Origin: an uncultured Actinomycetota bacterium
GTDB taxonomy: Bacteria; Actinomycetota; Nitriliruptoria; Nitriliruptorales; JAHWKO01
Length of the DNA: 50,515 nucleotides
Direction: 5' to 3'
NCBI GenBank assembly: GCA_964537235.1
Contig: CAZHZQ010000001.1
Span: 1 to 50,515 of the forward strand
Notes under the pieces: generated by a model
Database searches by the model: none
The model's input: only the letters and a program-made list of their open reading frames with translations
What the model was told of the DNA's origin: nothing
Shown here: one piece after another, positions 5,012-44,790 of the stretch
How the letters are laid out: every line of letters begins with the position of its first letter
Position numbering within the stretch: the stretch's first letter is position 1
Program-made: the position numbers and the translations under genes

Positions 5012-5842
5012 TCAGCTGGCGAAGTAGTCGGTCATCGTCTTGACGTAGTCATCGGGATGGGTGAGGTAGGGGAGGTGGCCGGCTCCGGCGAAGGTGTGCC
5101 AGTGGGCGTCGGGAAGTGAGGCGGCGAGAGAGGCGAGGATCGCAGCGAACATGGGTGGGCTGGCGTCGCCATCGGTCAGCAGGAGGGGCATCGGGATTGA
5201 AGCCAGTGTGCTGACATCTATCGCGAGCGCTTCGGGGTCGCCGAGCTCCCCGAGGAGGGTCGGTCCATGGGCCGTGACGTTGTCTTGAATCTCGGGCGGG
5301 AGGCGTTCCCACCAGCCCGGTCCGAGCGTGACCTCTTCGATGAACAGCTCGACACCACCGGCGTTGTCACCGGATTCGAGGCGTTGGCGAACGGCCTCGA
5401 ACGACGCAGTGGTCTGGTCGTAGATGCTGGCGTGTTCCGGTTGACCGTCGAGGACAGAGAGAAGAGGGGGTTCGTGTCCGGCGACCCGCCGAACGAGGTC
5501 GGGGCGTTCGATGGCGAGGCGGAGCGCGACGTTGGTCCCGTAGGAGGTGCTGCACACGTGTGCTGGCCCGAGGTCGAGCTCCTCGATCAAGGCGGCCAGG
5601 TCGGAGGCGTCGTCGTGAACGGTGCCCTCAGCGGGCGGCCCGCCGCTCCGGCCGTGCCCGCGCCGGTCGTAGGTCACGACACGGAACGTTTCAGCAAGGC
5701 CGGGCGCGACGAAGCGCCACGCCGTGGATTCGGCCAAAGAGCCGTGCACGAGGACCAAAGGATCTCCAGCACCCGAGATGTCGTAGTGCAAGTTCGGCCG
5801 GTCCGGTCGTGTGATCGTGGCCACAACTTCCCCTTCGGTCAC
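5012..5842 (-). CDS. Alpha/beta-fold hydrolase
   Basis: LVLVHGS oxyanion region, nucleophile elbow STSYG, C-terminal GAGHLPYLTHP. GTG start at 5842. Confidence 0.85.
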   Translation of the reverse strand: MTEGEVVATITRPDRPNLHYDISGAGDPLVLVHGSLAESTAWRFVAPGLAETFRVVTYDRRGHGRSGGPPAEGTVHDDASDLAALIEELDLGPAHVCSTSYGTNVALRLAIERPDLVRRVAGHEPPLLSVLDGQPEHASIYDQTTASFEAVRQRLESGDNAGGVELFIEEVTLGPGWWERLPPEIQDNVTAHGPTLLGELGDPEALAIDVSTLASIPMPLLLTDGDASPPMFAAILASLAASLPDAHWHTFAGAGHLPYLTHPDDYVKTMTDYFAS

Positions 5843-5885
5843 ACCGATGGTCTGAGCCGGAGCAGGAACGCGCCACTGCTAGACC

Positions 5886-5930
5886 CGGTGGGCGCGGACG
5901 GTTTCGAACCGCCGGCCTCCGCCTTGTAAA
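5886..5930. repeat. Distal att site (attL/attR copy): displaced 3' part of tRNA-Val, a 45-bp perfect direct repeat of 13800-13844
   Basis: cggtgggcgcggacggtttcgaaccgccggcctccgccttgtaaa is identical at both positions. It covers the tRNA from the anticodon loop to the 3' end. Confidence 0.88.
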
Positions 5931-6051
5931 AACGGATAAGGGGGATACAAGCTGTTCCCGTGTTCCCCCAGATGTTCCGTTGTCAGAGAGCTAGACGGGG
6001 GTAGGAGGCTGTCTCGGGGGAGCGGGGCTTCCTAGCTGTTCCCGCCCTTTC

Positions 6052-6091
6052 CGGACGGCTCACGGACAAACGACGGACAGATGCGGACAGA
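6052..6091 (+). repeat. Phased CGGAC(A) repeats (putative integrase arm-type sites, distal arm)
   Basis: CGGAC cores at 6052, 6063, 6074 and 6085, exactly 11 bp apart. The same GACGGACAAA unit occurs twice at 13713-13733. Confidence 0.5.
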
Positions 6092-6095
6092 ATGG

Positions 6096-6302
6096 TCACT
6101 CACCCCCGAGCCGATCCGCAAGCCCGCTATAGAGGTAGACCCCGGCGAAAAACCCACCTATGCCGAACGGCCCGACTATCAAGAGACCGACGACGCCTCC
6201 GAGCCCCGGTCCCGTCGGGGTCGCCCCGCCGAGTTCCACGAGCATCGCTCCTAGCCAAATCCCCACAATGCTCCCGGCGACACCAAACAGAATTACCAAC
6301 AC
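6096..6302 (-). CDS. Small Gly-rich two-TM membrane protein (68 aa), unknown function
   Basis: Hydrophobic, glycine-zipper-like sequence (GVAGSIVGIWLGAML...GLLIVGPFGIGGFFAGVYL). GTG start directly after AGGGGAAC. High GC3. Confidence 0.55.
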   Translation of the reverse strand: MLVILFGVAGSIVGIWLGAMLVELGGATPTGPGLGGVVGLLIVGPFGIGGFFAGVYLYSGLADRLGGE

Positions 6303-6463
6303 GTTCCCCTATCCCGACCTAGCTTCGACCGTAGGGGGGAGGTCTACCCAAACATGGCGCGGCTCTTGACTCTTGCCTCCCGCGCTGCCCGGCTGGGTGT
6401 GCCGGGGGAGTGCGCGGAGCGAAGCGGAGCGCCTATGGAAAGGGCAGCCTCTCAGCTACTCCC

Positions 6464-6628
6464 TCAGCTACTCCCGTGGCTCAGCATGGCGCGGAGGTCC
6501 CGGTAGATATGTGTTGCTAGGTCCCACATGGCCCCCAGGTAGCCCCGCAGCGCCTTGCCCCAGAGGTACGCGAGGGCTCCGACCCACAGGGCGATGAAGG
6601 CGTAAAGGAGGAAGGCCGATCCGCTCAT
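6464..6628 (-). CDS. Small single-TM membrane protein (54 aa), unknown function
   Basis: MSGSAFLLYAFIALWVGALAYLWGKAL... has one clear TM and high GC3. The start is uncertain (ATG 6628 vs ATG 6661). Confidence 0.45.
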   Translation of the reverse strand: MSGSAFLLYAFIALWVGALAYLWGKALRGYLGAMWDLATHIYRDLRAMLSHGSS

Positions 6629-6697
6629 GGGGTGGTCCCTGGTTGGGGTAGCACCGTACATATGTTCGGGTCACGGGGGAAGGAGGAACCCAACTTG

Positions 6698-7108
6698 TTA
6701 CCCATCCACTACCCCACGGCGGATCGCATCAGCACATACCGGGGCGTCATGGTCGGCGGGATCGAGACATGCCGCGATGAGGTCAACACGGCCCACGTGT
6801 TCAGGTCCAGCCACCCCCATGGCGGCCGGGTGACGACGCAGGGCCTCTAGCCATTGCTGGGAGGTTCGGCAGGACGTGAGCGTCGTTCGGATGAGTGGGT
6901 TAGCCCGGGACGGGTCTGTCTCGGCTGCCGCTGCTCGCATGTCGGAGAGGCAGGCAGCGGACGGCTGGGTGGTGGTCTGTTCCTCGTCGTCGCCCCCCAG
7001 CAAGGCACCGACCCCGGCGAGCCCCAGGACCCCTACGAGGATTATGGCGGGGAGCTTCCACCACCGTCCGTCGTTCGAGTCCCGTCCTGGCTCAGGTTGG
7101 TCATCCAT
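6698..7108 (-). CDS. N-terminally membrane-anchored protein with a 4-Cys extracytoplasmic domain (136 aa), unknown function
   Basis: WWKLPAIILVGVLGLAGVGALLGG is a TM segment, followed by a soluble domain with four cysteines. ATG 7108 is preceded by GGGGAG. Confidence 0.6.
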   Translation of the reverse strand: MDDQPEPGRDSNDGRWWKLPAIILVGVLGLAGVGALLGGDDEEQTTTQPSAACLSDMRAAAAETDPSRANPLIRTTLTSCRTSQQWLEALRRHPAAMGVAGPEHVGRVDLIAACLDPADHDAPVCADAIRRGVVDG

Positions 7109-7493
7109 CCGGCTCCCCAGACGTTCCCCTTTCCCTGACCGTAGACGGGATGGTGGATCAGCTTCGCCCCATTCACCTATTCCACAGTTTCTCGGCAGGG
7201 GGACCTCACCTATATGACCACCCCTCAGGTTGAACCCGGCCTATAGTTGTGTGTACAACTATCTTCTGTGTGGAAGGTGACTCACTCTCGATCCTTCCTC
7301 GCTGCCGCCTTCCTTCCCTGACCACGACGGGGGCGACGGTCGGGGCGCGGGCAGGGTGCTGTTGAGACAGTCCTAAGACGGCCGGGGGGAGGTATGACTA
7401 TGGGGGCTGAGGTAGCTGTTCGATCCCCAGCCTGCCCCAGCCTTCCCCCCTGCCGCTTGCTCCACCCTCCGATCCTCCATCTTCACTCTGACC

Positions 7494-7522
7494 TTGCGAG
7501 GCTCTGACCAGGTGTGTAATAC
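7494..7522 (+). promoter_or_regulatory. Putative sigma-70-type promoter for the serine recombinase operon
   Basis: TTGCGA (7494-7499), a 17-nt spacer, then TAATAC (7517-7522), in an AT-richer stretch about 55 nt upstream of ATG 7578. Confidence 0.3.
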
Positions 7523-7577
7523 TTCTTTTAGTTACTATTACGCTCACGGTTGCAAGCAGCCGAACAGGAGGGCAGAG

Positions 7578-7793
7578 ATGAGGACGAGCGTCAGGGTTCA
7601 GGAGAAGGACTGGCGATCATTCGTCACGGTCGCGACCTACTCCCAACCGATGCAGGCTGAGGCGGATGCGTTCAAGCTGGTCCGCCAGGGCTACCACGTC
7701 GAGCTAGGGCACCACGGGACGCGGATGCGCGAGCCGGGACGGTCGAAGGTCTGGACGAACGCGGAGCATGACTGGAACGTGATTGACCGATGA
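7578..7793 (+). CDS. Small protein (71 aa), unknown function, first gene of the serine recombinase operon
   Basis: Strong AGGAGG 8 nt upstream of ATG 7578. Its stop overlaps the recombinase ATG (ATGA at 7790-7793). The track start at 7494 lacks an RBS. Confidence 0.5.
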   Translation: MRTSVRVQEKDWRSFVTVATYSQPMQAEADAFKLVRQGYHVELGHHGTRMREPGRSKVWTNAEHDWNVIDR

Positions 7794-8599
7794 GGTTGCT
7801 CGGATATCTGAGGGTCAGCACGAACGGGCAAGCGGACAACGGGACGAGCCTGCCCGGACAGCGGGAAGCGATCCAGACGTGGGCCAGGGAGAACGGCCAT
7901 GAGGTCGTCGGCTGGTACCAGGATGCAGGGGTATCGGGGGCGAAGGAGCTAGAGGACCGCGACGGGCTCGCGGACGCCTTCCACGACCTGAGACAGGGGG
8001 AAGCTCAGGGGCTGGTGGTGTACCGGCTGGACCGCCTGGCCCGTGACCTGATCGTGCAAGAGACACTGTTGGCTGAGCTATGGGGAATGCAGATCGGCTC
8101 GGTCCTGGACGACCGGGACGGGGCTGCCGTGTTCTCCACGATCCCCTCCGAGGGGGAGTACCTAACCCCTGACACGGACGATCCCTCACGGAAGCTCATC
8201 CGTCAGACGTTGGGGGCGGTAGCTGAGTACGAACGATCCATGATCGCGCTCCGCATGAAGGCAGGGCGGGACAGGAAGCGGAGGCAAGGTGGGTACGCGG
8301 GAGGACGCCCACCGTTCGGCTGGAAGGCTGAGGACGGGGAGCTAGTCCCGTGTCCGGATGAGCAAGAGACCGTCCAGCTTGCCCGTGAGCTACGTGAGGA
8401 CGGGATGAGCTACCGCCAGATCGCGGAGAGGCTGGTGGAGGAAGGTCACCCACCCCGAGCCGTCCGGGACGCTCAGCGGAAGGCTGAGCGGGGCGATGAG
8501 GACGTGGAGGTACCTATGGACTGGACCTGGCATCCGCCTCAGGTGAGCGCCCTCATGGACGACCCTGAGGTAGTGACCAGGACCGGGGCCGGGGAGTGA
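7790..8599 (+). CDS. Serine recombinase (resolvase/invertase catalytic domain plus C-terminal HTH-like region, 269 aa)
   Basis: N-terminus MRLLGYLRVSTNGQ (catalytic Ser), VVYRLDRLARD, AEYERSMIALRMKAGR, GGRPPFGW...MSYRQIAERL. Confidence 0.9.
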   Translation: MRLLGYLRVSTNGQADNGTSLPGQREAIQTWARENGHEVVGWYQDAGVSGAKELEDRDGLADAFHDLRQGEAQGLVVYRLDRLARDLIVQETLLAELWGMQIGSVLDDRDGAAVFSTIPSEGEYLTPDTDDPSRKLIRQTLGAVAEYERSMIALRMKAGRDRKRRQGGYAGGRPPFGWKAEDGELVPCPDEQETVQLARELREDGMSYRQIAERLVEEGHPPRAVRDAQRKAERGDEDVEVPMDWTWHPPQVSALMDDPEVVTRTGAGE

Positions 8600-8808
8600 G
8601 TGACGAGATGAGTGAGGACAACGGAACGACGGAAGGACCGAACATGGATCGCTGGGAACGTGACCACCGGAAGCTGCATCAGCTTCGCCGGGAGAGTGAG
8701 GCGCTGGGCGTGAAGGTGAGAGACGCTGACGCCATGAAGCTACAGAGGGAGGTTGGCTTTGAAGCTGACTACTCCCGGATCGTGGACGAGAGGGGTCATG
8801 GGGAATAG
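8596..8808 (+). CDS. Small charged protein (70 aa), unknown function
   Basis: GTG 8596 overlaps the recombinase TGA (GTGA). An alternative ATG lies at 8608. No recognisable motif. Confidence 0.4.
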   Translation: MSDEMSEDNGTTEGPNMDRWERDHRKLHQLRRESEALGVKVRDADAMKLQREVGFEADYSRIVDERGHGE

Positions 8809-9120
8809 TGGGATAGGGGTTATAGGGATGTTCGGGATGGGTAGTTGCCGGGGGCTACATCCCATCCATTCCGCAGCTACCTCCCACACATCCACGGTGG
8901 ACCCCCGTGTGAAATAGCGCGGGCTACTGGGAGGACGAGTAGTAGGGCGTGAGTGGCTGCATATAGCAATATCTGACAGTTCTAGACGGACGGTAGGGGT
9001 CGGTGGCCTTATACCCTCATGACATCCCTTGTCCTCCCTCTATATGCGGTGCCAGCCCCCTCTAGCTGCCTGTTTTTCTGAAAGTGGGGTTAGTGGCGCG
9101 TAGGTGGGGGACTATCACAA

Positions 9121-9140
9121 TTCTTATAGTTCTTATAGTT
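9121..9140 (+). repeat. Perfect 10-bp tandem repeat TTCTTATAGT x2 (iteron-like)
   Basis: Read directly. Related TCTTA(T/G) units occur at 9157, 9249, 9296 and 13667. Confidence 0.7.
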
Positions 9141-9237
9141 GAATAGGGGGGGTGTCTTATACCTCTCGGGGAGCCTTGCATGAGGGGCTGGGGTACTGCC
9201 GGGGAGCGGCATGAGAGGGAGGGGCGTGGTGGCTTAT

Positions 9238-9328
9238 CCGGGAAAAAGTCTTAGTAGGTCTCCCTGCCCCGTTCCGGCCCTTAACCGGGAAGTTTTCTTA
9301 GGTCTCATGGGTATAGGGTTTTTCCCGG
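9238..9328. repeat. 10-bp perfect inverted repeat CCGGGAAAAA / TTTTTCCCGG enclosing a 71-nt segment with internal direct repeats
   Basis: 9238-9247 is the reverse complement of 9319-9328. The inner units are TCTTAGTAGGTCTC (9249) and TCTTAGGTCTC (9296), with a central TCCGG...CCGGG hairpin. Confidence 0.6.
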
Positions 9329-9374
9329 ACAAGGAGGGATCGCGGGCTGGGGAGTAGCTGAGAACGGGACCGGG

Positions 9375-9436
9375 GGACCAGGACCCGAGAGAAGGCGAGA
9401 AAGCCTGGTCCGGTCGGGGGCGGAGAGTCCCCCGAC
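9375..9436 (-). terminator. Two tandem GC-rich hairpins just downstream of the minus-strand island operon
   Basis: GGACCAGG (9375-9382) pairs with CCTGGTCC (9404-9411), and GTCGGGGG (9413-9420) pairs with CCCCCGAC (9429-9436). There is no clear U-tract. Confidence 0.35.
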
Positions 9437-9460
9437 GGTTACCCGATCCCGTACCGTCCT

Positions 9461-10111
9461 TCAGGAGTCGTCGGTGAAGGCATCGTGTAGTCGGCTGTTG
9501 ACCTGTTGCCGCAGTTCCTCACTGGCGGTCACGCGCCCCGCCCGTTCACGGCTGCCTCCGCTACTCGACACGTACACGGTCTCAGCTTCCTCGAAGGGGA
9601 AGGGCTCGTACTCGACCTCGAACCTGCCGATGTTTTTCCCGGCCCTGGCAAACGCCTCGGTGTCCACCTCCTCGGGGAGGTTGTCGGGACGTGCCTGCCT
9701 CAGCTTGCGATGCCACCTACTTACTCGCTTGTTCTCCTCGGCAATCTCCTCCTTATAATCGGCTCTCGCTTCGTTCACCTTCTCCCGCTGCCCCTCAACA
9801 TCTCCCCGGTTCTCGCGGAGGTCGGCAAGGGCTTGCTCCTCAATCTCCGCAGCGGTCTCGTCAACTACTCGCTGGGCTACCCGTGTCAGGTTCCTCTCAG
9901 AGCCCTCCACTTGCAGACGGTGGTACTCGACGGCTGACCTGGCATCGCGTAGCTGGTCCTGGGTGACGGTGCGATCCCCGTCACTGAGCCGCTGTTGCAG
10001 TTCCTCTAGGTGGGCGACGGCCTCTGTGGCAGCTTCCTTATCGTCGGCAAGCTGCTGCCGTGCTTCGGGAATGGTCATGGTCTCGGTCGGTTCGGTTGGG
10101 TCGTCACTCAT
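9461..10111 (-). CDS. Coiled-coil protein (216 aa), unknown function
   Basis: Heptad-like, E/R/Q/A-rich sequence. ATG 10111 overlaps the upstream TGA (ATGA). Confidence 0.65.
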   Translation of the reverse strand: MSDDPTEPTETMTIPEARQQLADDKEAATEAVAHLEELQQRLSDGDRTVTQDQLRDARSAVEYHRLQVEGSERNLTRVAQRVVDETAAEIEEQALADLRENRGDVEGQREKVNEARADYKEEIAEENKRVSRWHRKLRQARPDNLPEEVDTEAFARAGKNIGRFEVEYEPFPFEEAETVYVSSSGGSRERAGRVTASEELRQQVNSRLHDAFTDDS

Positions 10112-10515
10112 GCCGCATCCCCTCCCAGTGTCCCCAGAGCGTCACTGAGGCGCAGGTCGACGGCAGTCTCATAATCGCCCTCAGCCTCAGCCTGGGCTAT
10201 CCTCCCATCCAGCGTGGAGGGCTCGGACCCTTCCCCTTCCTGTTCGTTCTCGCCCCGGTCGTTGTCGTTATCAGAGTCGTTCGGGGAGGCGCTCTCGTCG
10301 CCGGGGTTACCGGGGCCAGGGCCAGAGATGTCGTCCAAGCTCACCCCCTCTGCGTTGGTGTCGTCATCATCACTCGCCTCTAGGCTGTCGCTCATCCCCT
10401 GATCGGTGCGGAGGTCAATGCCCTCGTTGAGCCTTTGGGTAATGGCTCCATCCCGTTCCTTCCGTGTCATGTTCGCCCAGTCTGGTCGCTGGGTCTGGTC
10501 GTCTGTCTCACTCAT
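10108..10515 (-). CDS. Extremely acidic protein (135 aa), unknown function
   Basis: About 30% D+E (for example SLEASDDDDTNAEG, NDSDNDNDRGENEQEGEGSE). Translationally coupled to the downstream gene. Confidence 0.6.
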   Translation of the reverse strand: MSETDDQTQRPDWANMTRKERDGAITQRLNEGIDLRTDQGMSDSLEASDDDDTNAEGVSLDDISGPGPGNPGDESASPNDSDNDNDRGENEQEGEGSEPSTLDGRIAQAEAEGDYETAVDLRLSDALGTLGGDAA

Positions 10516-10579
10516 CTTCTTCTTTCCTTTCTCGCGTCACGTCCCGGTATCTCCGAGCCGCATCTCTTGTTGCTGACTG

Positions 10580-11554
10580 TCATGCCGCTTCCGTGATCCC
10601 CTCGCTCTGGTCGTCGTCCTGATCGACAACCTCACTCCACCCCGTGACCGCGTGCTGCCGCTCCCGTTCGATCTTTACCTGCCTCTGGATCTCCGCAGCC
10701 CAGCCCTCATCCGTGAGACCAGGGGGAACCGATCCCGACACCCACCACTCAGGTATGGGCTGCCCGTTACCCCGTAGGCGTTCGGCTGCCCGTAGCTGAA
10801 CGTCGGACAGGTGAGCCTTGTCCGAGAAGGCATCCAGGTCGATCCATTCCCGTTCTCCCTCAGGCTGGTAGCTCCGGAAGGGATTGGGAACTATCCAAGG
10901 ATGCTCCCTGCTGCCCCGCGATGAGGACAACACCTTGACCGTCTGCCCGACCACCAGAACCTCATGCAGCTTCCGGGCCGCGTCGTCCGGAGTGAGGCGT
11001 TGCCAGGGAAGCTCGTACTTACATGACCGCTGGGGGGACAGGTCAGCCGTGGCGAAGGCGTAGAGGGCGCTGTCCCGGTTCTCGATGGTCGCGTAGTTAG
11101 CCCAGCCCTCCCGTGCTGCCCGGTCGGAGATGGTCCGCTCCCGATAGGTCGTCTGGTCGTCCTTGTCCATCTCGCCGTAGCCCGGAACGGTGGCGGTCCA
11201 GATTGCGGGTTGTTCGAGGAAGCGGGAGAGGAAGTATTGGAGGGCTGCCCGTCCTCTCGGTTCCGCGCAACGGTCCCGGCAGTACCAGGAACCATGAGGC
11301 GGGAGAGGTACCGACTCCACCTGTCCATCCACGATCCGCCCCCTCACCATCTGCCCACAGTGGAGGACGTACTCGGGAACATCCGGGGTGGGGTACAGGT
11401 CGGGCCAGTCCACGCGGGGTACGCGGAGCCTGGCAAGCTCATCCGGGGCGATGCCGTGGAGGTAGGCAAGGTCGTCCAAGCTCCATAGGCGGGCCACGGT
11501 TGAGCCCGTTGCTGGGCTGCCCCCGGAGGCTTCCGGGGTACCATGTAGCTGCAA
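10580..11554 (-). CDS. Island protein of unknown function (324 aa); possible replication or initiation factor (weak)
   Basis: TTG start with GAAGG about 7 nt upstream. HC...C-x3-C cluster (LHCGQMVRGR...WYCRDRCAEP). It occupies the position after xis where integrative elements usually encode a replication protein. Confidence 0.6.
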   Translation of the reverse strand: MQLHGTPEASGGSPATGSTVARLWSLDDLAYLHGIAPDELARLRVPRVDWPDLYPTPDVPEYVLHCGQMVRGRIVDGQVESVPLPPHGSWYCRDRCAEPRGRAALQYFLSRFLEQPAIWTATVPGYGEMDKDDQTTYRERTISDRAAREGWANYATIENRDSALYAFATADLSPQRSCKYELPWQRLTPDDAARKLHEVLVVGQTVKVLSSSRGSREHPWIVPNPFRSYQPEGEREWIDLDAFSDKAHLSDVQLRAAERLRGNGQPIPEWWVSGSVPPGLTDEGWAAEIQRQVKIERERQHAVTGWSEVVDQDDDQSEGITEAA

Positions 11555-11687
11555 GGGATTACCTTCTCTCTGCTGGTCACGTTGGGCTTGTCCTTCCTCT
11601 GTTGACCGTTGCCCTCTCGGTGTCCTTCACGCCGGGAGGGCTTCTCTCATGTCACGTCCGTGAGCCCGTGGGTTCTCGGTTGTCTCG

Positions 11688-11876
11688 TTAGGCAGCCTGG
11701 TCCGCGTTCTCGGAGAGCCATTCCTCTACGTCTTCCTGACGGAACCTCAGGGCTCCCGTTCCTCCGGCGAGCCGGACGGCTCGGGGACCCTGGCCCTTGT
11801 AACGCCAGTTATAGATCGAGGAGGTACTGACACCGAGGTAGTCAGCAAGCTCATCGACGCTCATTAGGTCACTCAC
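11688..11876 (-). CDS. Excisionase / AlpA-type helix-turn-helix DNA-binding protein (62 aa)
   Basis: MSVDELADYLGVSTSSIYNWRYKGQGP...RFRQEDVEEWL is the typical HTH_17/Xis pattern. GTG start preceded by AAGGAAAG. Confidence 0.75.
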   Translation of the reverse strand: MSDLMSVDELADYLGVSTSSIYNWRYKGQGPRAVRLAGGTGALRFRQEDVEEWLSENADQAA

Positions 11877-11947
11877 AGTCTTTCCTTTCTAGTGCTGGAT
11901 TGTCTATCGCGTGGCCGGTCTGCCCCACATAGTCATGTTACGGTAAG

Positions 11948-12523
11948 ATGTTTCCCAAGCTGTACAGCCTGTTGGATATCGCAACACGAAGGACCACGGT
12001 GGCGAAGCAAGAGAGGGGTGCCAGTGGCCTCCCTGACGACGTTCGGGAGTATCTGGATGAGGTCGTGGAGGCTGTCGCTGCGATGGTCCAGGGAGAGCCC
12101 CCGCCCAGGAACCCACGGGCCGCGCTAGAGGCAGCTATCTCGGCTGCGTCAGGGCTGGGGGGCTGGCAGACGATCACGGACGTTCCGAACGTCCTTCGGA
12201 CCAACATCGTTCGACTCCGGAAAGAGAAGGGCTGGACCCAACAGGGGCTCGCTGACCAGATGGAGGCAGCCGGGTTCGGCTGGACCAGAGCGATAGTCAG
12301 TCACGTAGAGACGGTGGAGCCCGACACAGCTCAGGTCAGACGGCAGGTGTCGGTCACAGAGGTTCTAGGGCTGGCCCTCATTTTCGACGTCCCCCTGACC
12401 TCTCTGCTGGTCCCGGCTGACGGGGAGACACCTGTTGAGGTTGGGGGCCGCAGCCTCACCCCGGACGACCTGAGAGACCTCATCGAACGACGGACGACGG
12501 ACGACGGACAGGAAGGGCGCTAG
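11948..12523 (+). CDS. XRE-family HTH transcriptional regulator (cI-like repressor candidate)
   Basis: LRKEKGWTQQGLADQM...SHVE...VTEVLGLALIFDVPLTSLL. Divergent from the xis-like gene, with its stop 2 nt before the integrase ATG. The start is uncertain. Confidence 0.72.
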   Translation: MFPKLYSLLDIATRRTTVAKQERGASGLPDDVREYLDEVVEAVAAMVQGEPPPRNPRAALEAAISAASGLGGWQTITDVPNVLRTNIVRLRKEKGWTQQGLADQMEAAGFGWTRAIVSHVETVEPDTAQVRRQVSVTEVLGLALIFDVPLTSLLVPADGETPVEVGGRSLTPDDLRDLIERRTTDDGQEGR

Positions 12524-12525
12524 TC

Positions 12526-13656
12526 ATGGCGCACATACGGAAGCGAGAGGGAAAGACGGGCCGGAGCTATCAGGTCCGGTGGGTCGACCCTGACGGACAG
12601 GAGCGGGCTAAGACGTTCTCGCGGAAGGGTCCAGCCGATGTATTCCTCCGCAAGGTGGAGCGGGAGATGGACACGGGGGAGTACGTCGATCCGTCCCGTG
12701 GCGACACGCCCTATGCGACATGGGTGGAGGACGGGTGGTGGCCCGGATACGCCCCCACGCTCGGAGACTCCACACGTATCCGGTACCGGGGCATCCTGGA
12801 CAACTACCTCTTGCCAAGGTTCGGGGACACAAAGCTGTCCCGGCTGAGGCAGGAGGACATACAGGCGTGGGTGGGGGACCTCACGGAGGAAGATGGACTC
12901 GCCCCTGCCACGGTGAAGAAGAACTATGACCTCCTGCAACGCTCCGTGGAGGCTGCCGTTGCCGCTGACAGGTTGCAGCGGTCCCCGTGCAAGGGCATCC
13001 ACCTACCCCGGCAGGACTCTCAGGAGATGAGGGCTCTCACTCCCTCTCAGGTGGACGCTCTCGCCACGACCATCGCGCCCCTGTACCGGGCTATGGTCCT
13101 GGTCGCTGCCTACGGGGGGCTGAGGCTGGGGGAGCTTGCGGGCTTGAAGGTGGATCGGGTGGACCTCCTGCATGGTCAGGTCCAGGTGGTGGAGACGCTG
13201 TCATGGCCCAAGGGCAAGCCCACTCCGAAGCCGGTTCCCAAGAGCGACGCTGGACGGAGGATGGTGGGGCTTCCGGGGAGCGTGGTGGAAGCTCTGGACC
13301 TCCACCTGTCCAGCTATCCCGCGTCCGATGAGGGCTACATCTTCACGTCTGTTGAGGGGCTGCCTCTGAGGAAGGACAACTACCGCCGTCGTCACTGGAA
13401 CCCAACCACGGAAGCGGTCGGGCTCCCGGCTCTGAAGTTCCATGAGCTAAGGCACACGGCCGCATCCCTCATGATCCGGGCGGGAGCGGACGTGTTGACC
13501 CTGGCCCGGAGGCTCGGTCACGCGAAGCCCTCCTACACCTTGGACCTGTACGGACACTGGTACCCGGACCAGGATCAGGCGCTCCGTTCCAACCTTGACG
13601 CAATGATCGAGAGCGGCAGCGTGGAGGCGTCGAACGTGGCGAACATGAACGGCTGA
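12526..13656 (+). CDS. Tyrosine-type site-specific integrase
   Basis: N-terminal SAM-like domain. Catalytic region GLRLGELAGL...HELRHTAASL...LGHAKPSYTLDLYGHW (R..HxxR..Y). Adjacent to the tRNA att site. Confidence 0.93.
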   Translation: MAHIRKREGKTGRSYQVRWVDPDGQERAKTFSRKGPADVFLRKVEREMDTGEYVDPSRGDTPYATWVEDGWWPGYAPTLGDSTRIRYRGILDNYLLPRFGDTKLSRLRQEDIQAWVGDLTEEDGLAPATVKKNYDLLQRSVEAAVAADRLQRSPCKGIHLPRQDSQEMRALTPSQVDALATTIAPLYRAMVLVAAYGGLRLGELAGLKVDRVDLLHGQVQVVETLSWPKGKPTPKPVPKSDAGRRMVGLPGSVVEALDLHLSSYPASDEGYIFTSVEGLPLRKDNYRRRHWNPTTEAVGLPALKFHELRHTAASLMIRAGADVLTLARRLGHAKPSYTLDLYGHWYPDQDQALRSNLDAMIESGSVEASNVANMNG

Positions 13657-13712
13657 GGGGATGAGTCTTATGTGCCTCTTGGGTAACCGTCCCGCCTCCG
13701 TCCCGTCTGAGC

Positions 13713-13733
13713 GACGGACAAATGACGGACAAA
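13713..13733 (+). repeat. GACGGACAAA x2, 11 bp apart (putative integrase arm-type sites, int-proximal arm)
   Basis: Two identical 10-mers at 13713-13722 and 13724-13733. The same core and phasing occur at 6052-6091. Confidence 0.5.
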
Positions 13734-13799
13734 CGGGATGCGGCCCGAACCCCTCTCAGCCCCAAAGTGCCGATATCCGGTAGTTATACCTCTCTAGCT

Positions 13800-13844
13800 C
13801 GGTGGGCGCGGACGGTTTCGAACCGCCGGCCTCCGCCTTGTAAA
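13800..13844. repeat. Proximal att site within the intact tRNA-Val (partner of 5886-5930)
   Basis: 45/45 identity with 5886-5930. Confidence 0.88.
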
Positions 13845-13876
13845 GGCGGCGCTCTCCCAAGCTGAGCTACGCGCCC
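13801..13876 (-). tRNA. tRNA-Val (anticodon UAC)
   Basis: The reverse complement folds as a cloverleaf: acceptor GGGCGCG/CGCGCCC, D stem GCTC/GAGC, anticodon stem CCGCC/GGCGG with loop TTTACAA, T arm GGCGG-TTCGAAA-CCGTC, discriminator A. CC is encoded. Confidence 0.95.
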
Positions 13877-13936: not shown

Positions 13937-15055
13937 GTGGCCGATCGGGTGTCGGACTGGGTGTCGCTGGTCCACGATCTGTACCCGCCCGCGCGTGCCG
14001 CGGACTGGGACAACGTGGGCCTCCAGGTCGGCGATCCGGACGATCCGGTCGAGCGGGTCCTGGTCACGTTGGACGTGACCTCGTCCGTCGTCGAGGAAGC
14101 CGCGGACGGCGCGGCGACGCTGATCGCCGCACACCATCCGTTGCTGTTCCAGTCGTTGTCGCAGGTGACCCCGGCGACCGCATCCGGGCGGATCGCGCTG
14201 GCGGCTGCCAAAGCGCACGTGTCGGTCCTCGCCGCACACACCAACCTCGACGTGGCGGACGACGGGGCGGGTACGTCTGACCCGATCATGCGTGCCCTCG
14301 GCATCGACGACACCCGACCGCTCACGAGCGAGACCCGGCAGTCCGACGAGGTGAAGCTCGTGACCTTCGTGCCGTCCGACGACGTCGATGCTGTCCTGGA
14401 CGCGCTGGCCGACGCGGGCGCGGGTGTGATCGGCGACTACGAACGGTGTTCGTTCCGCGTGGTCGGAACCGGCACGTTCCGCCCCGGTGCGGACGCGGAT
14501 CCCTACAGCGGCGCGGTGGGAGAGGACAACGAGGAGACGGAGGCTCGCCTCGAGATCGTCGTACCCCGTCGCCGGCTCGGTGGTGCGATCCGGGCACTGC
14601 TGGGCGCACATCCGTACGAGGAGGTCGCCTACGACGTCTACCCGCTCGTGGCAGGCGGGCGGATCGGCTTCGGGCGCCTCGGAGAGCTGGATGCCCCCAC
14701 GCCGCTGTCAGCGGTCGCCGGTCGCGTACGTGAAGCCCTGCCGGCGCCCCACCTCCGCTTCGCCGGGGACCCGGATCGCCGGGTGCAGCGGATCGCCGCC
14801 GTCGGGGGTTCGGGCGACTCGTTGATCCCGGCTGCGCTCGGTGCCGGGGCGGACGTCCTGGTCACCGGCGATCTCAAGCACCACGTCACGCTCGATGCAC
14901 TGGAGATGGGCCTGGCGCTGATCGACGCCGGTCACCACGCCACCGAGGTCGCGGCGATGCCGGCCTGGATCGACCGACTGCGGCACGAGGCATCCCAGAG
15001 GGAGCTGCAGGCGGAGGTGGTAGCTTCGTCCGTCCCCACGAGCCCGTGGGTCTGA
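13937..15055 (+). CDS. Nif3-like dinuclear metal centre protein (GTP cyclohydrolase I type 2 homologue)
   Basis: DWDNVGLQVGD, LIAAHHPLLF, HTNLD, C-terminal VTGDLKHH...DAGHHATE. GTG start. Confidence 0.9.
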   Translation: MADRVSDWVSLVHDLYPPARAADWDNVGLQVGDPDDPVERVLVTLDVTSSVVEEAADGAATLIAAHHPLLFQSLSQVTPATASGRIALAAAKAHVSVLAAHTNLDVADDGAGTSDPIMRALGIDDTRPLTSETRQSDEVKLVTFVPSDDVDAVLDALADAGAGVIGDYERCSFRVVGTGTFRPGADADPYSGAVGEDNEETEARLEIVVPRRRLGGAIRALLGAHPYEEVAYDVYPLVAGGRIGFGRLGELDAPTPLSAVAGRVREALPAPHLRFAGDPDRRVQRIAAVGGSGDSLIPAALGAGADVLVTGDLKHHVTLDALEMGLALIDAGHHATEVAAMPAWIDRLRHEASQRELQAEVVASSVPTSPWV

Positions 15056-19219: not shown

Positions 19220-20017
19220 TCAGGGCCGTGGATCGAGGGTCTCGTCGATGTGCCGCTCGAAGGTCTCGTGCACCTCGCTCGTCACCGGCCCCGGAGCCGG
19301 GTACGTCGTCTCGTCGATCGCGTGCACGGGCATCACGGGGCGGGTGGCCGACAGGAGGAAGACCTCGTCGGCGTCCAGGAGCTCGTCGAGCGTGTGCACG
19401 CCGAGCTCGACGTCCACCAGACGACCGAGGTGGGCGAGTGTGACCGAGTCGAGGATCGGGAGCGCATCGGGGTCCGGGGCGCGGAGCACCTCGTCCTCGA
19501 CCCACGCGATGGCCGCGGTGGGCGATTCGAGCACGATGTCGCCGTTGACGACGATCGCATCGTCGGCGTGGGCGGCCTTGGCCTGCCGCGTCGCCCACAC
19601 GTTGGCGGCGTAGGAGAGCGTCTTGACGCCGGTGAGGGCCGTCCGCCAGGGCATGTCGATGGGCCGGAGCGCCATCGTGGATGGCCACGTCGAAGCCTGG
19701 AGCACTCCGCGCACGATGCCGTCGCGGGTCACGACGAGTCGCAGGGAGCCGTCACGATCGCCCCACGCCGCCAGCAGGTCGGTCACGACCTGACGCAGGA
19801 CGGGGACGCGGATGCCCAGGACCCTCGCGGAGCGCCGGAGGCGCGCCAGGTGATCGTCGAGCGCGTGCGTCCGACCGCCCCGTACCAGCGCGACGTCGAA
19901 CACGGCGTCGCCCCGCAGGAACCCGTCATCGAGCAGCGGAACGGTGGCCTCGGAGGCCGGCACGACACGGCCGTTCATCCAGGCGAGGGGTCTCGGTTCA
20001 GCGGACACGGCGTGCAT
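19220..20017 (-). CDS. Class IV (branched-chain / D-amino acid / ADC-lyase type) aminotransferase
   Basis: DDGFLRGDAVFD, HLARLRRSA, LTGVKTLSY. Confidence 0.82.
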   Translation of the reverse strand: MHAVSAEPRPLAWMNGRVVPASEATVPLLDDGFLRGDAVFDVALVRGGRTHALDDHLARLRRSARVLGIRVPVLRQVVTDLLAAWGDRDGSLRLVVTRDGIVRGVLQASTWPSTMALRPIDMPWRTALTGVKTLSYAANVWATRQAKAAHADDAIVVNGDIVLESPTAAIAWVEDEVLRAPDPDALPILDSVTLAHLGRLVDVELGVHTLDELLDADEVFLLSATRPVMPVHAIDETTYPAPGPVTSEVHETFERHIDETLDPRP

Positions 20018-20112
20018 GGTGGCAGAGCACGCCGCCTCGGGTCGAACCGGCCTCCGTCATCACGCCCGACATCGGGAACGGTCGTGGGCGCCGTCGCGTT
20101 GTACCGTCACGA

Positions 20113-20486
20113 GTGAGGAGCCGACCGGGCGGCCGCGGTTTCGCATCACGCGGGATCGAGGAAAGTCCGGACTCCACAGGGCAGGGTGCTGGGGAGAACC
20201 CCAGGCGCGGCGACGCGTGGACAGTGCCACAGAAAACACACCGCCGATGGCCGCACACGCGGCACAGGCAAGGATGGAACGGTGCGGTAAGAGCGCACCA
20301 GCGTCCGGGGCGACCCAGGCGGCTCGGTAAACCCCACCAGGAGCAAGGCCAAGCAGGGACAGGGCGGCCCGTCCGACGTCCCAGGTAGGCCGCTAGAGAC
20401 GCTGGGCAACCGGCGTCCCAGACAGATGGTCGCCACCCCGCACTCACGGTGGGGCACAGGATCCGGCTTACAGGTCGGCTCCTCAC
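20113..20486 (+). ncRNA. rnpB: RNase P RNA, bacterial type A
   Basis: P1 pairing between 20113-20126 (gtgaggagccgacc) and 20473-20486 (ggtcggctcctcac). Universally conserved blocks GAGGAAAGTCCGGAC, ACAGAAAACA, GGTAAGAGCGCACCAG, GGTAAACCCCACC, AGCAAGGCCAAG, ACAGGATCCGGCTTACAG. Confidence 0.93.
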
Positions 20487-26384: not shown

Positions 26385-26972
26385 TCAGTCGGTCGCGGAG
26401 CGCTCGTTGCCGGGGTAGACGTCCTCCTCGGAGACCTCCCACACGGGGGTCTTGGTCGAGTTCTCGACGTTGAACCCGTAGTCGAAGGCCAGGGACCCGC
26501 CGTACGTCGCCCCGTACGCGGTGAGCAGTCCGATCACGACCGACAGGACGGTGACACCGATCGGTGCGGCCGGAGCGTCGTAGCTCCCCAGCCGCAACAC
26601 GAGGTCGACGGCCACCAGCACGGTGACGGTCACCATCACCGCCATGTGCCAGTTCGCGGTCCGCCACGCCTGGGTGTGCTTGGGTGTGCTCTTCCACCAG
26701 TCCCAGAACCCGGTCGCCGCCGCCCCGAGTGAGACGACGGCCCCGCCGGCCAACGTCCACGTGCCGGCGACGTAGGCATCGGCCGCGAAACCACGGTCGG
26801 CGCCGGCCACGGCGGAGATGAGGTCGAAGGCTGCGACCAGGGTGTACGCCCCGATCGGCACGTCCGTCAGCGGAGGGTGCAGCGGTTTGCCCGCCCAGCC
26901 CCGTATCCCTTTGAACTCGCGGCCGCGGAACGTGATGCCCGGACCGATCGAGAAGATGCGTCGTCGTCCCAC
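26385..26972 (-). CDS. DUF2231-like integral membrane protein
   Basis: GKPLHPPLTDVPIGAYT motif followed by 4 TM segments. Confidence 0.72.
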   Translation of the reverse strand: MGRRRIFSIGPGITFRGREFKGIRGWAGKPLHPPLTDVPIGAYTLVAAFDLISAVAGADRGFAADAYVAGTWTLAGGAVVSLGAAATGFWDWWKSTPKHTQAWRTANWHMAVMVTVTVLVAVDLVLRLGSYDAPAAPIGVTVLSVVIGLLTAYGATYGGSLAFDYGFNVENSTKTPVWEVSEEDVYPGNERSATD

Positions 26973-27013
26973 GTCGTCCTCCGTCGTCCTCGGTGCTCCC
27001 CGCTGTCTCCTGT

Positions 27014-28483
27014 ATGTCTAGCGCTTCGACGCATGACTACGCTCCCGACAGCCCAGTGGGAGATCTCGCCGTGTCCGACCTCGCGTTCACGTCCGCGCTC
27101 GAACAGGCCCGCATGATCCGGGACGGCGAGGTCTCCTCGCGGGAGCTGGTCGACCTCTACCTGGATCGGATCGACACGTACGACGACGACCTCAACAGCT
27201 ACACGACGGTCCTGCATGACGAGGCCCGGCGCCTCGCCGCGGAGAAGGACGAGCGGACGGCCTCGGCCGCTCCGGACGAACTGCCCCCGTTCCACGGGGT
27301 CCCGGTCTCGATCAAGGGCCTGAACTTCCTCGCGGGGCAGCCCGCCACGATGGGCACGCGCGCGATGAAGGACTTCCGCGCCCCGTTCGACGACGAGATC
27401 GTGGCGCGGCTCAAGCGCGCCGGCATGGTGCCGCTCGGGCTCACCAACGTGCCAGAGTTCGGGTCGGTCGCCTACACGGAACCTGAGCTGTTCGGACCCG
27501 CCCGCAACCCGTGGGACCACGACCGCACCCCAGGGGGATCGTCCGGGGGTGGCGCGGCGGCGCTCGCCGCGGGCCTGTGTCCCGTATCGCAGGGATCCGA
27601 CGGGGCTGGCTCCCTGCGCATCCCCGCGTCGAACTGCGGGCTGTTCACGATCAAGCCGACCCGCGATCGTGTCAGCCGCGCCCCGCTCTTCGGCAACTTC
27701 GGGTTCGAGCTGTCCACCGGTGGCACGATCAGTCGGACGGTCGCGGACACCGCGGCGCTCCTCGACGTCCTCCACGGGTACGTGCCCGGGGACCCTGGGA
27801 TGCTGCCCGATCCGGAACGGCCCTTCGCGGACGAGGTCGGTCGGGACCCGGGTCAGCTGCGGATCGGCGTGCTGTCCACCAGCCCGGTCGGTCGCTACGC
27901 GGAGCCCGTGCGGGCTGCTCTCGATGAGGCACGGACGGTCGTCGCGGAGCTCGACCACGAGGTCGTCGAGGTCGAGGTGGGCGTCGAGGACGACGTGATC
28001 GACGCGTTCATGGACATGTGGGCGGCGATGATGTCGGCGCAGCCCGTGCCTCTGGACACCATCGAGCCGCACAACCGGTGGCTCGTGGAGGAGCGGGGGA
28101 AGTCGATCTCGGGTGGTTCCTACCTGATGTCCGAGTTCCGCCTCAACCAGTACTGCCGTCAGCTCGTCGGGCGCTTCCACACCGAGTTCGACGTGCTCGC
28201 CTTCCCGGTCGTGACCGAGCTCCCGTTGCAGGTACGGGAACTGGCGGACGCCGAGCCGGAGGCCGTGTGGGACCGCATGACCGAGTACGTGGGCGCGACC
28301 GCGATCGTCAACGCCACCGGACAGCCGTCCATCGGGGTCCCGCTGTACCACGACGACGACAGCGGCCTGCCCGTGGGGGTCCAGTTCGTCGGGCGTTTCG
28401 CCGAGGAGTCGCTGCTGTTCCGGCTCGCCGGTCAGCTCGAGCAGGCGCGGCCGTGGCACGACCGGTGCCCGCCCGGCTACTGA
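27014..28483 (+). CDS. Amidase (amidase-signature family)
   Basis: GVPVSIKG, GGSSGGGAAALAAG, GSDGAGSLRIPAS. The start is uncertain (GTG 26993, ATG 27014, or GTG 27071 with GGGAGA upstream). Confidence 0.87.
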   Translation: MSSASTHDYAPDSPVGDLAVSDLAFTSALEQARMIRDGEVSSRELVDLYLDRIDTYDDDLNSYTTVLHDEARRLAAEKDERTASAAPDELPPFHGVPVSIKGLNFLAGQPATMGTRAMKDFRAPFDDEIVARLKRAGMVPLGLTNVPEFGSVAYTEPELFGPARNPWDHDRTPGGSSGGGAAALAAGLCPVSQGSDGAGSLRIPASNCGLFTIKPTRDRVSRAPLFGNFGFELSTGGTISRTVADTAALLDVLHGYVPGDPGMLPDPERPFADEVGRDPGQLRIGVLSTSPVGRYAEPVRAALDEARTVVAELDHEVVEVEVGVEDDVIDAFMDMWAAMMSAQPVPLDTIEPHNRWLVEERGKSISGGSYLMSEFRLNQYCRQLVGRFHTEFDVLAFPVVTELPLQVRELADAEPEAVWDRMTEYVGATAIVNATGQPSIGVPLYHDDDSGLPVGVQFVGRFAEESLLFRLAGQLEQARPWHDRCPPGY

Positions 28484-43533: not shown

Positions 43534-43569
43534 GGACGGTCTTGGACGAGCTCTCAAGGAGGGAGCACC

Positions 43570-44790
43570 ATGAGAAGCACGAGAAGCAGGATCCTGGCGA
43601 TCATGATGGCGATCGGTCTGCTCGCCGCCGCGTGCGGCGGCGGCAACGGTGGTGGAGGTGAACCGACCGCCGGCGACACCGCGGTGGACGGCACCGAGGA
43701 CGGCGGGGGCGCCGCCTCCGGCGAGCCGATCACGGTCGGCGCCGTCTTCGACCTGTCGGGCGCCACCGCGGACGTCGGCACCCCGTTCGCCGACGGCGTC
43801 AAGGCCTACGTCGAGTGGCTGAACGACAACGGCGGCGTCGACGGGCGGCCGATCGAGCTGCTGAACGCCGACTACGCGTACGACGTCGCCCAGGCCGAGC
43901 AGCTGTACTCCCAGTACGTGTCCCAGGACGTGGTCGCGTTCAGCGGCTGGGGCACCGGAGACAGCGAGGCGCTGCGGTCCCGGGTGACCGAGGACGAGAT
44001 CCCGTTCATGTCGGCGTCGTACTCGGAGGGGCTGGCCGACCCGGCCGAGACCCCGTACAACTTCGTCGCCGCCGCGAGCTACTCGCAGCAGATGCGCGTC
44101 GCCCTGGCCCACATCGCGAACGTCAGTGACGGGCACGCCGAGGTGGCCGTGTTCCACCACGACTCGCCGTTCGGGGAGTCCCCGTTGGAGGACGGCCGGC
44201 AGTACATCGCCGACGAGGGCCTGGACATCGGCTACCAGACGTACGCGATGCCGGGCGGCGCGACCGACTACACCGGTGAGCTCACTCAGGTCCAGGACCA
44301 GGGTGCCGGCTACGTCATCATCCAGAACGTGTCCAGCCCCGCGGCCCAGCTGGCGCAGAACATCCAGTCCCAGGGCATGGACGCGACGATCGTGTGCCTC
44401 AACTGGTGCGCCGACGAGATCTTCGTCGAGCTCGCCGGGGACGCGTCGGAGGGTTCGCTCGGGGTGCTGCCGTTCGCGCCACCGAGCCAGGCCGACGGGG
44501 ACATCAGCGACGTCCAGGAGGCCATCGGCGATGACATCAACCTCCACCACACGCAGGGCTGGTACCAGTTCTCGCTCTTCGTCGAGGCGATCCGCCACGT
44601 CCTGGAGGGAGGCGGCGAGGTGACCGGACCGACCATCAAGACCGCGTTGGAGGAGATGGGGCCGCTCGACACGCCGGTGACGACCGAGATCGAGTTCACG
44701 GCCGACGACCACATGGGCATGAAGTCCGTGCCGGTCTACGAGGTCCAGGACGGTGCGTGGACCACCATCACCGACCCGATCACCCCGTGA
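43570..44790 (+). CDS. ABC substrate-binding lipoprotein (LivJ/type I periplasmic-binding fold)
   Basis: Lipoprotein signal LLAAACGGG, then ITVGAVFDLSG. GGAGGGAG lies before ATG 43570. Confidence 0.9.
   Translation: MRSTRSRILAIMMAIGLLAAACGGGNGGGGEPTAGDTAVDGTEDGGGAASGEPITVGAVFDLSGATADVGTPFADGVKAYVEWLNDNGGVDGRPIELLNADYAYDVAQAEQLYSQYVSQDVVAFSGWGTGDSEALRSRVTEDEIPFMSASYSEGLADPAETPYNFVAAASYSQQMRVALAHIANVSDGHAEVAVFHHDSPFGESPLEDGRQYIADEGLDIGYQTYAMPGGATDYTGELTQVQDQGAGYVIIQNVSSPAAQLAQNIQSQGMDATIVCLNWCADEIFVELAGDASEGSLGVLPFAPPSQADGDISDVQEAIGDDINLHHTQGWYQFSLFVEAIRHVLEGGGEVTGPTIKTALEEMGPLDTPVTTEIEFTADDHMGMKSVPVYEVQDGAWTTITDPITP

Follow-up and report, generated by a model that had tools for sequence, protein, structure and literature searches.

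How can a small chromosomal island persist and spread when it appears to carry what is needed for excision and nothing recognisable for replication, packaging or transfer? The locus that raises this question lies in a 50,515-nucleotide stretch of DNA from an uncultured Actinomycetota bacterium of the Nitriliruptorales (positions 1 to 50,515, forward strand, of contig CAZHZQ010000001.1, assembly GCA_964537235.1), to which we refer in its whole length as the window. A small element is inserted there at a tRNA-Val gene. Its core combines an integrase gene (int) and an XRE-type regulator with a divergent excisionase gene (xis) that heads three further genes, orf324, orf135 and orf216. An original prediction, made from the sequence, had described this core as either phage satellite-like or similar to an integrative mobilizable element (IME). 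[quoted passage not shown]

Actinomycetota conjugate by means of one FtsK-like translocase together with a short cis site, and an island would need very little to exploit such a system. To our knowledge, no conjugation parasite of this kind has been characterised in Actinomycetota. The element described here is a compact candidate, with its complete-looking recombination kit, its lack of a transfer gene and a conserved three-gene module in the slot that relatives use for replication. For most genomic islands no means of transfer is known, and hitch-hikers are thought to outnumber autonomous elements (PMC11389934).

Borders and recombination genes of the element

The element is bounded by perfect 45-bp direct repeats (45 of 45 positions in the repeat alignment) at 5886-5930 and 13800-13844. 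Measured from repeat start to repeat start it is 7,914 bp long, close to the approximately 8 kb first proposed, and its GC content of about 62% differs from the roughly 70% of the flanks on each side. The repeat corresponds to the part of tRNA-Val(TAC) that begins in the anticodon loop and runs to the 3' end. The copy at 13800-13844 (minus strand), the attR core, constitutes the 3' 45 bp of an intact tRNA-Val(TAC) gene (13801-13876, minus strand; called by ARAGORN, Rfam tRNA score 66.5 bits), and the copy at 5886-5930, the attL core, is a non-functional partial copy of this tRNA. Insertion at the tRNA-Val 3' end regenerates the tRNA. No third att-like copy was found inside the element, which is therefore a single element; two elements inserted in tandem are ruled out.

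Arm-type sites of tyrosine integrases typically take the form of repeat pairs, present on each arm of the reconstituted attP. A pair of GACGGACAAA repeats with 11-bp spacing is located at 13713-13733 (plus strand; GACGGACAAAT/GACGGACAAAC), about 70 bp from attR, and a one-mismatch pair with the same 11-bp spacing is located at 6061-6081 (plus strand; CACGGACAAA, GACGGACAGA), about 130 bp inside attL. Together these att-adjacent pairs account for four of the seven matches to GACGGACAAA, with at most one mismatch, in the whole 50-kb window. Their position near both att cores makes them candidate arm-type integrase sites.

The integrase gene (12526-13656, plus strand) encodes a 376-residue tyrosine recombinase matching Phage_integrase (3.6e-19), Phage_int_SAM_3 (1e-9) and phrog_1 (4e-59). 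The catalytic residues R...HxxR...H...Y are all present, and the translation shows the motifs GGLRLGE, HELRHTAAS and LGH..LDLYGH. Identity is 75% to the closest relative (P0010), about 46% to AICE integrases and about 30% to actinophage integrases. A variant differing by one residue (P0005) occurs on a separate Logan contig, and a scan of the genome-contig collection with the integrase returned a single match, unrelated and 26% identical.

The regulator gene (11948-12523, plus strand) ends 2 nt before the integrase ATG, so the two genes probably form one operon. Its 191-residue product has a helix-turn-helix (HTH) region at about residues 85-145 with weak similarity to HTH_31 and HTH_3; the HTH_31 match (0.009) is under the Pfam cut-off. 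A counterpart in the same position on a related contig (L005) is 49% identical and matches HTH_31 at 7e-4. A metagenome scan with the regulator gave generic HTH matches only, without any further common gene. Divergent from this operon, xis (11688-11876, minus strand) encodes a 58-62-residue HTH_17 DNA-binding protein (PF12728 5.7e-14; phrog_66 6e-14) that passes the excisionase model TIGR01764 (34.3 bits against a cut-off of 28.8). Its homologues adjoin int on four related contigs (L005, L006, L008 and L009). In the region between xis and the regulator gene, no operators conserved with L005 were found, and a sigma-70 consensus scan found no promoter.

These results bear directly on the layout given in the original prediction. 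All six genes were recovered where it had placed them, with int and the XRE gene divergent from the Xis-type HTH operon, and their base composition is coding-like (GC content of 0.68-0.81 at third codon positions, GC3, against 0.42-0.50 at second positions, GC2). The label 'cI-like' for the regulator holds for its position and not for its domain content, because no S24 peptidase domain was found. The description of the divergent gene as AlpA/Xis-type is borne out on the excisionase side, and the Phage_AlpA model falls slightly short (20.4 bits against a cut-off of 21). The prediction had left out the serine-recombinase operon, the three small membrane proteins, the paired arm-type repeats and a 652-bp non-coding stretch, all of which are described below.

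Translational coupling is seen at three junctions of the element, and every open reading frame (ORF) is intact with no pseudogene visible. With Int, the excisionase, the att cores and the arm-type repeats, the recombination kit looks complete and the element is probably excision-competent. The AICE feature of a recombinase beside att, with flanking direct repeats at a tRNA 3' end, is present; the autonomous excision and integration module of an IME is likewise present at the sequence level, as is the integrase plus regulatory switch of a satellite, with the AlpA model itself just under its cut-off.

Absence of known transfer, packaging and replication functions

The Walker A motif ([AG]xxxxGK[ST]) is absent from all six frames of 5886-13849. 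Independently of homology, this means that the element encodes no FtsK/TraB translocase, replicative helicase, large terminase or ParA. Profile searches with Pfam, PHROGs and NCBIfam agree, with no translocase, relaxase, helicase, capsid or terminase among the element proteins, and the FtsK/SpoIIIE translocase family (PF01580) matches none of the ORFs. No AICE replication protein (RepSA, RepAM/DUF3631 or Prim-Pol) is matched in Pfam or NCBIfam, and PHROGs matches are limited to the integrase, the excisionase and the recombinase. No replication gene of a satellite (its own primase, replicase or helicase) is recognisable either, and there is no P-loop; packaging genes (terS, cpm, ppi, sid/psu/delta, capsid or portal) are absent from the PHROGs and Pfam results. 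A pac or cos site is recognisable only if the helper phage is known. In a blastn search of the whole element against phages and plasmids, the tRNA alone matched. The original claim that no replication, packaging or transfer gene can be recognised is therefore confirmed by profiles and by the six-frame P-loop scan. Of the three features that define an AICE, the element lacks two, Tra and a Rep of known type, and it should not be filed as one.

The three-gene module downstream of xis

The first gene of the module, orf324 (10580-11554, minus strand), encodes an alpha/beta protein of 305 residues as called on a Logan contig (start at about 11497) and is a near-orphan. It is followed by orf135 (10108-10515, minus strand), whose product is very acidic and probably disordered, and by orf216 (9461-10111, minus strand), which encodes an acidic helical hairpin whose C-terminal third is disordered or uncharacterised. 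As originally noted, orf135 and orf216 are coupled by an ATGA overlap and all three genes belong to no recognisable family, with zero matches in Pfam, PHROGs and NCBIfam. The emphasis placed on the acidity of orf135 stands as to composition (37 D+E of 135 residues) and is weakened as to meaning: host proteins in the window are comparably acidic (pI, isoelectric point, 4.5-5.4), so that the property is less telling.

A word-indexed search of 5.8e9 proteins with orf324 returned only the query itself, and an exhaustive phmmer search of 1.84e9 representative proteins added a single true relative, P0007 (E 1e-7). The two proteins are 27% identical over residues 46-227 and share the motifs LTPD[DE]A, VLVVGQ and PW..PNPFR. 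Two further phmmer matches were dismissed as spurious, being Ig-repeat proteins. For orf216, the word-indexed search returned the query and one relative, P0003, which is 55% identical. Neither orf324 nor orf216 has a tblastn match in 50,697 GenBank phage records or 72,556 plasmid records; neither protein, nor the regulator, has a relative in IMG/VR, and alignments of orf324 and orf216 gave no match to PDB sequences.

The predicted structure of orf216, obtained with AlphaFold2 (AF2), is a long helical hairpin, in keeping with the coiled coil originally proposed. Its mean predicted local distance difference test score (pLDDT) is 71, exceeding 90 over residues 10-80, and the helices span residues 14-43 and 51-139. 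Foldseek comparison of this model with PDB and BFVD gave generic coiled coils only (best E 0.03).

On the contig that carries P0007 (L004), the gene that follows begins MSKSYEVSEEAREAQR (1007-1054) and shows a faint likeness to the orf216 N-terminus (..TIPEARQQLADDK). Only 16 codons of this gene precede the end of the contig, and the likeness hints that orf324 and an orf216-like gene may travel together.

Relatives and a sister element

The element itself is recorded in public data as Logan contig SRR12687320_415575 (L001), whose 7,929 bp are identical to window positions 5901-13829, that is, to the interior plus 30 nt of each repeat. Two samples contain this contig, and SRR12687281 has a fragment bearing orf216. 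The closest integrase, P0010, lies on contig L005, and the orf216 relative P0003 lies on contig L003 from the same sequencing run; the two contigs are therefore probably fragments of one sister element. On L005, the regulator lies directly upstream of int and an HTH_17 gene is divergent from them. On L003, the orf216 homologue is followed by a convergent serine recombinase, and the 33 nt upstream of it encode a C-terminus (..VGGAA*) resembling that of orf135, coupled through an ATGA overlap as in the element. What follows xis in the sister is not orf324 but the gene for an AAA_25 ATPase (9e-35) with matches to helicase and primase families of phages.

More distant integrases, at about 46% identity, sit in co-directional rep-xis-int modules. 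Two contigs (L008 and L009) carry RepSA-HTH_17-Int together with FtsK_SpoIIIE, GntR and NUDIX genes, the textbook arrangement of a pSAM2-type AICE, in an Egibacteraceae metagenome-assembled genome (MAG). RepSA-HTH_17-Int modules are found in these contigs and in L028, and one such module lies at another tRNA-Val. The order Prim-Pol...HTH_17-Int was seen twice, in L007 and in the contig of P0021. In all six informative relatives, xis has a gene of replication type or with a P-loop no more than three genes away. Some integrase relatives are named from Egibacteraceae and Acidimicrobiia MAGs; this and the 70% GC of the flanks are indirect signs that make a host in Actinomycetota plausible. Mycolicibacterium EPIP satellites and a Rhodococcus replicative element were considered as relatives and set aside, their content being unrelated.

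One of these relatives, L007 (JGI Ga0672920_0002661, 5614-11155), provides a second case of a small AICE-clade element that lacks transfer genes and has its resolvase at the end remote from int. Within some 5.6 kb it carries a resolvase, two uncharacterised genes, Prim-Pol, DUF2637, HTH_17 and an integrase, and it has no FtsK gene. The element resembles L007 in integrase clade (46%), small size, the serine resolvase far from int and the missing FtsK gene. Unlike the element, L007 has Prim-Pol and DUF2637 and a co-directional xis-int arrangement, and it has no XRE gene and no homologues of orf324, orf135 or orf216.

The serine-recombinase operon and the convergent intergenic stretch

Convergent with the orf216 operon is a translationally coupled operon of three genes (7494-8808, plus strand). 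A small basic protein of 99 residues at the longest, or 71 as called, with no family match (7494-7793, plus strand), is encoded first, and its stop overlaps the start of the recombinase gene (ATGA). The short serine recombinase itself (7790-8599, plus strand; 269 residues) has a Resolvase domain (PF00239 8e-31; phrog_95 2e-55), the catalytic Ser in YLRVSTNGQ and the beginning of a 'Recombinase' domain. A 70-residue acidic protein (8596-8808, plus strand) follows, the GTG start of which overlaps the recombinase stop. The best full-length matches of the recombinase, about 36% identical over 95-99% of the length, come from small actinomycete plasmids, including pRA1 (9.4 kb, Rhodococcus), pWTY27 (14.3 kb, Streptomyces) and other Streptomyces plasmids of 13-45 kb. 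Some of these plasmids have further annotations of their own: pRA1 (NC_010882.1, L036) also carries a gene annotated 'head completion/stabilization protein', and in pWTY27 (NC_013667.2, L037) a 'phage major capsid protein' is annotated beside the recombinase, so that plasmid and phage annotations are mixed in both.

Between the two convergent operons lie 652 bp of non-coding DNA (8809-9460; 51-60% GC), which, given this position, are not a promoter region. The stretch contains 2.2 copies of TTCTTATAG (9121-9140), three copies of CCGGGAA, four CTTATA hexamers (out of five in the element) that share one strand, and a 15-nt inverted repeat (9233-9247/9319-9333). A terminator-like hairpin of orf216 lies at about 9408-9436. 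A 17-nt block, AACMGGCAGCTAGAGGG (9058-9074), is shared with the equivalent intergenic region of L003, at a score reached by two of 500 shuffles; the proteins encoded on either side diverge more, with 55% identity between element and sister for orf216 and 27% for the recombinase. Four IMG/VR matches to the 17-mer were taken as chance, since their composition and content are unrelated. Hairpins of the sso type and a non-coding RNA were rejected as explanations, because the stretch folds no better than shuffles and has no Rfam match. No link of its repeats to a TraB or a relaxase was found. We regard 8809-9460 as a candidate cis site (an origin, iterons, a res site or a transfer locus) and as no more than that.

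Proposed life cycle and points against it

The features described above suggest a simple life cycle. The XRE regulator, produced from the int transcript, would repress the divergent promoter of xis-orf324-orf135-orf216, and on derepression Xis and Int would excise a 7.9-kb circle. The orf324 operon would then act on the excised circle. It would most likely serve replication or maintenance, since the slot beside xis is occupied in relatives by RepSA, Prim-Pol or an AAA_25 helicase. Here orf324 could be a lineage-specific initiator or DNA-binding replication factor that recruits the host helicase and polymerase, with the 652-bp stretch as its target; orf135 and orf216 would be accessory or maintenance proteins, and multimer resolution, a role proposed for its homologues on plasmids, would fall to the serine recombinase. 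To reach another cell, the element would depend on a conjugative element in the same host or on a phage, or it would not pass between cells at all. A precedent within the lineage exists in pWTY27, whose replication needs Prim-Pol (RepB), a 'hypothetical' RepA and a non-coding iteron region (PMC3583192). RepA, which has no Pfam domain, was shown experimentally to bind the 300-bp iteron region (PMC3583192), and therefore provides an example of a domain-less initiator with a repeat-bearing non-coding origin. The assignment of orf324 as an initiator, made by position only, is tentative, and we would sooner bet against it than for it. If it were true, orf324 would represent a new replication protein family that current AICE and plasmid profiles miss.

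Several observations weigh against this interpretation. The arrangement of the element, with xis divergent from int and an XRE gene before int, differs from that of its AICE relatives, which have one co-directional rep-xis-int operon; the divergent layout of xis against regulator and int is more like that of ICEBs1, Staphylococcus aureus pathogenicity islands (SaPIs) or prophages. Nothing beyond position ties orf324 to replication. Comparison of its alignment with RepSA and Prim-Pol by hhalign gave a probability of 0.2%, so that no similarity is detectable. No nucleotide-binding, HUH or primase motif was found in orf324, and its AF2 model, built on a two-sequence alignment, has a pLDDT of 35 and is unusable. 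The sister has a helicase-type gene after xis and may have an orf324 homologue besides it, or none, its contigs being fragmentary. In the intergenic stretch, repeated 7- and 8-mers exceed all 300 shuffles, yet they are not exceptional when compared with coding windows, and folding z-scores of -0.3 and +1.4 indicate no significant single-strand structure. Lastly, the 7,929-bp Logan contig was rejected as evidence of a circle, as a k=31 unitig broken at the 45-bp repeats looks just the same.

Alternative explanations

Three other accounts of the locus were weighed. [quoted passage not shown] The 7.9-kb size and the regulator-int unit divergent from a xis operon do fit SaPI/PICI architecture, the sister has a primase/helicase-type gene after xis as satellites do, and the long helical hairpin of orf216 is compatible with a scaffold-like protein such as P4 Sid or Psu. 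Against this, PHROGs and Pfam contain no match to a small terminase, capsid, portal, head-tail or known interference family, PHROGs recognises only the recombinases and the excisionase, and neither IMG/VR nor the 50,697 phage records hold a relative. Minimalist satellites that lack capsid genes do exist (PICMI, PMC10803314). The similarity of orf216 to viral structures is that of generic coiled coils (E 0.03 or worse), the integrase and recombinase clades are associated with AICEs and plasmids, and no prophage is visible in the 50-kb window. We consider a satellite very unlikely, and this half of the original prediction was not supported. Its other half, an IME-like element, is the better of the two options, because the relatives come from the world of actinomycete conjugative elements and plasmids; the helper dependence that it proposed is an inference from what the element lacks.

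The same absences could be the mark of decay, in which case a former AICE, plasmid or prophage would have been stranded without its transfer and replication genes, perhaps still excising, and the remaining genes would be leftovers or neutral cargo. Rep and tra genes of known types are indeed missing, and the element is extremely rare in public data. In an AICE survey, loci that show no more than two of the three signatures (int, rep and tra) are counted among remnants or other islands (Ghinet 2011, PMC3218068), and traB-less remnants have been reported in Streptomyces (PMC9513070). If this account were true, the element would be an ordinary one. The intact ORFs with three coupled junctions and no visible pseudogenes argue otherwise, as do the identical att cores with arm-type repeats on both arms and the conserved 17-nt non-coding block. 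In addition, the backbone (int, regulator, xis, the tail of orf135, orf216 and the convergent recombinase) is kept in the sister at 49-75% protein identity, which points to long-term selection on the module. A remnant is therefore an unlikely explanation, although it is the strongest of these competitors. Poorer odds than for either are given to a cargo or defence islet, in which the operon downstream of xis, the membrane proteins or both would form an anti-phage, exclusion or anti-restriction system on a minimal integrase cassette. Small integrase-borne islands often carry defence genes, the very acidic orf135 might act by mimicking DNA, the opposite end of the element encodes three small membrane proteins, and the excisionase HTH matches the HTH of MADS Mad1 (6e-10, well under the cut-off of that model). 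However, PADLOC has no match for orf324, orf135, the serine recombinase or the small membrane proteins, and orf216 gives marginal coiled-coil matches only (JetC in PADLOC, 2.5e-4, over the coiled-coil arm; SMC in NCBIfam, 0.0037). Acidity is proteome-wide in the host, and the slot in question is the replication slot in all informative relatives.

Within the favoured reading of an intact, transfer-less element, a bolder version can be formulated. The element and its sister might be the first members of a family of helper-dependent hitch-hikers in high-GC, acid-proteome Actinomycetota. Such elements would excise themselves, replicate with orf324 as a new, P-loop-free initiator or manipulate the helper through orf135 and orf216, and be moved by TraB, the double-stranded-DNA translocase, of an AICE or plasmid in the same cell through a clt-like site in 8809-9460, or by a phage. 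This scenario is speculative and we think it improbable, about on a par with the remnant. We know of no experimental description of a TraB-hijacking mobilizable island.

Comparison with known systems

The closest known counterparts are AICEs, with which the element shares a same-clade integrase (about 46%), an adjoining HTH_17 excisionase, insertion at a tRNA 3' end with direct repeats and a small size. In contrast to AICEs, it has no FtsK/SpoIIIE, no RepSA, RepAM or Prim-Pol, no GntR Kor and no NUDIX Pif; its xis and int are divergent, with an XRE regulator gene ahead of int. AICE-related elements without tra or rep are on record, and their authors suggest decay or helper mobilisation (Ghinet 2011, PMC3218068; Choufa et al. 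2022, PMC9513070). Those tra- or rep-less remnants were noted in passing only, whereas in the present element the backbone is intact and conserved in a sister, and the operon is a near-orphan. The defective AICEs (DAICEs) of Streptomyces by definition retain traB (Choufa et al. 2022, PMC9513070).

The plasmids pWTY27/pSG2 and pRA1 have a similar short serine recombinase (about 225-275 residues), around 36% identical over the full length. Unlike the element, they exist as free plasmids, carry TraA/TraB, Spd (DUF2637), Kor and Prim-Pol and have no tyrosine integrase or att-tRNA, and beyond the recombinase nothing in them is similar to the element. In the switches of ICEBs1 and of SaPIs and PICIs, by comparison, regulator, int and xis are ordered and oriented as in the element, and the genes downstream come into play after excision. 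No ImmA-type protease and no target for an antirepressor can be identified in the element, which has neither the relaxase and helicase processivity factor of ICEBs1 nor the pri-rep and terS/cpm/ppi of SaPIs; sequence similarity to either is confined to the folds of the HTH and the recombinase. The kind of element is already known, though uncharacterised; its novelty lies in how an ICEBs1/SaPI-like switch of regulator-int against xis is combined with an integrase of the AICE clade, a resolvase of plasmid type and a three-gene module that is nearly an orphan.

Other features of the element and the window

Three small membrane proteins, encoded between 6096 and 7108, point towards attL. The first (6096-6302, minus strand) is a hydrophobic protein of 49-68 residues (49 as called on the Logan contig) with two to three predicted membrane helices, a grand average of hydropathy (GRAVY) of 1.29 and no family match. 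The second (6464-6661, minus strand) has 65 residues and one hydrophobic helix, and its gene has a GC3 of 0.82. The third (6698-7108, minus strand; from the ORF call) is a membrane-anchored protein of 136 residues with four Cys in its predicted external part, and it has no match in Pfam, PHROGs, NCBIfam or PADLOC.

Outside the element, a full-length bacterial class A RNase P RNA is located at 20117-20486 (plus strand; 250.7 bits, E 1.4e-80), and ORFs across it, such as 19998-20486 (minus strand), are therefore probably not genes. ARAGORN also called a 95-nt tRNA-Pro(CGG) at 49331-49425 (plus strand), with an Rfam tRNA score below the gathering threshold. The call lies within or beside a Ser/Pro/Asp-rich ORF on the opposite strand (49296-50513), and a false positive or an atypical gene is the probable explanation. 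Host proteins of the window are acidic, with pI values of about 4.0-5.4 at 70% GC (for example those encoded at 42-2114, 13937-15055, 26936-28483 and 43534-44790), which suggests a halophilic or haloalkaliphilic high-GC host. A 54-bp tandem repeat of two copies (77% matches) at 1484-1591 falls in the linker of a 690-residue GAF/histidine-kinase/receiver protein, where it encodes a repeated Pro/Ala/Thr/Val-rich segment.

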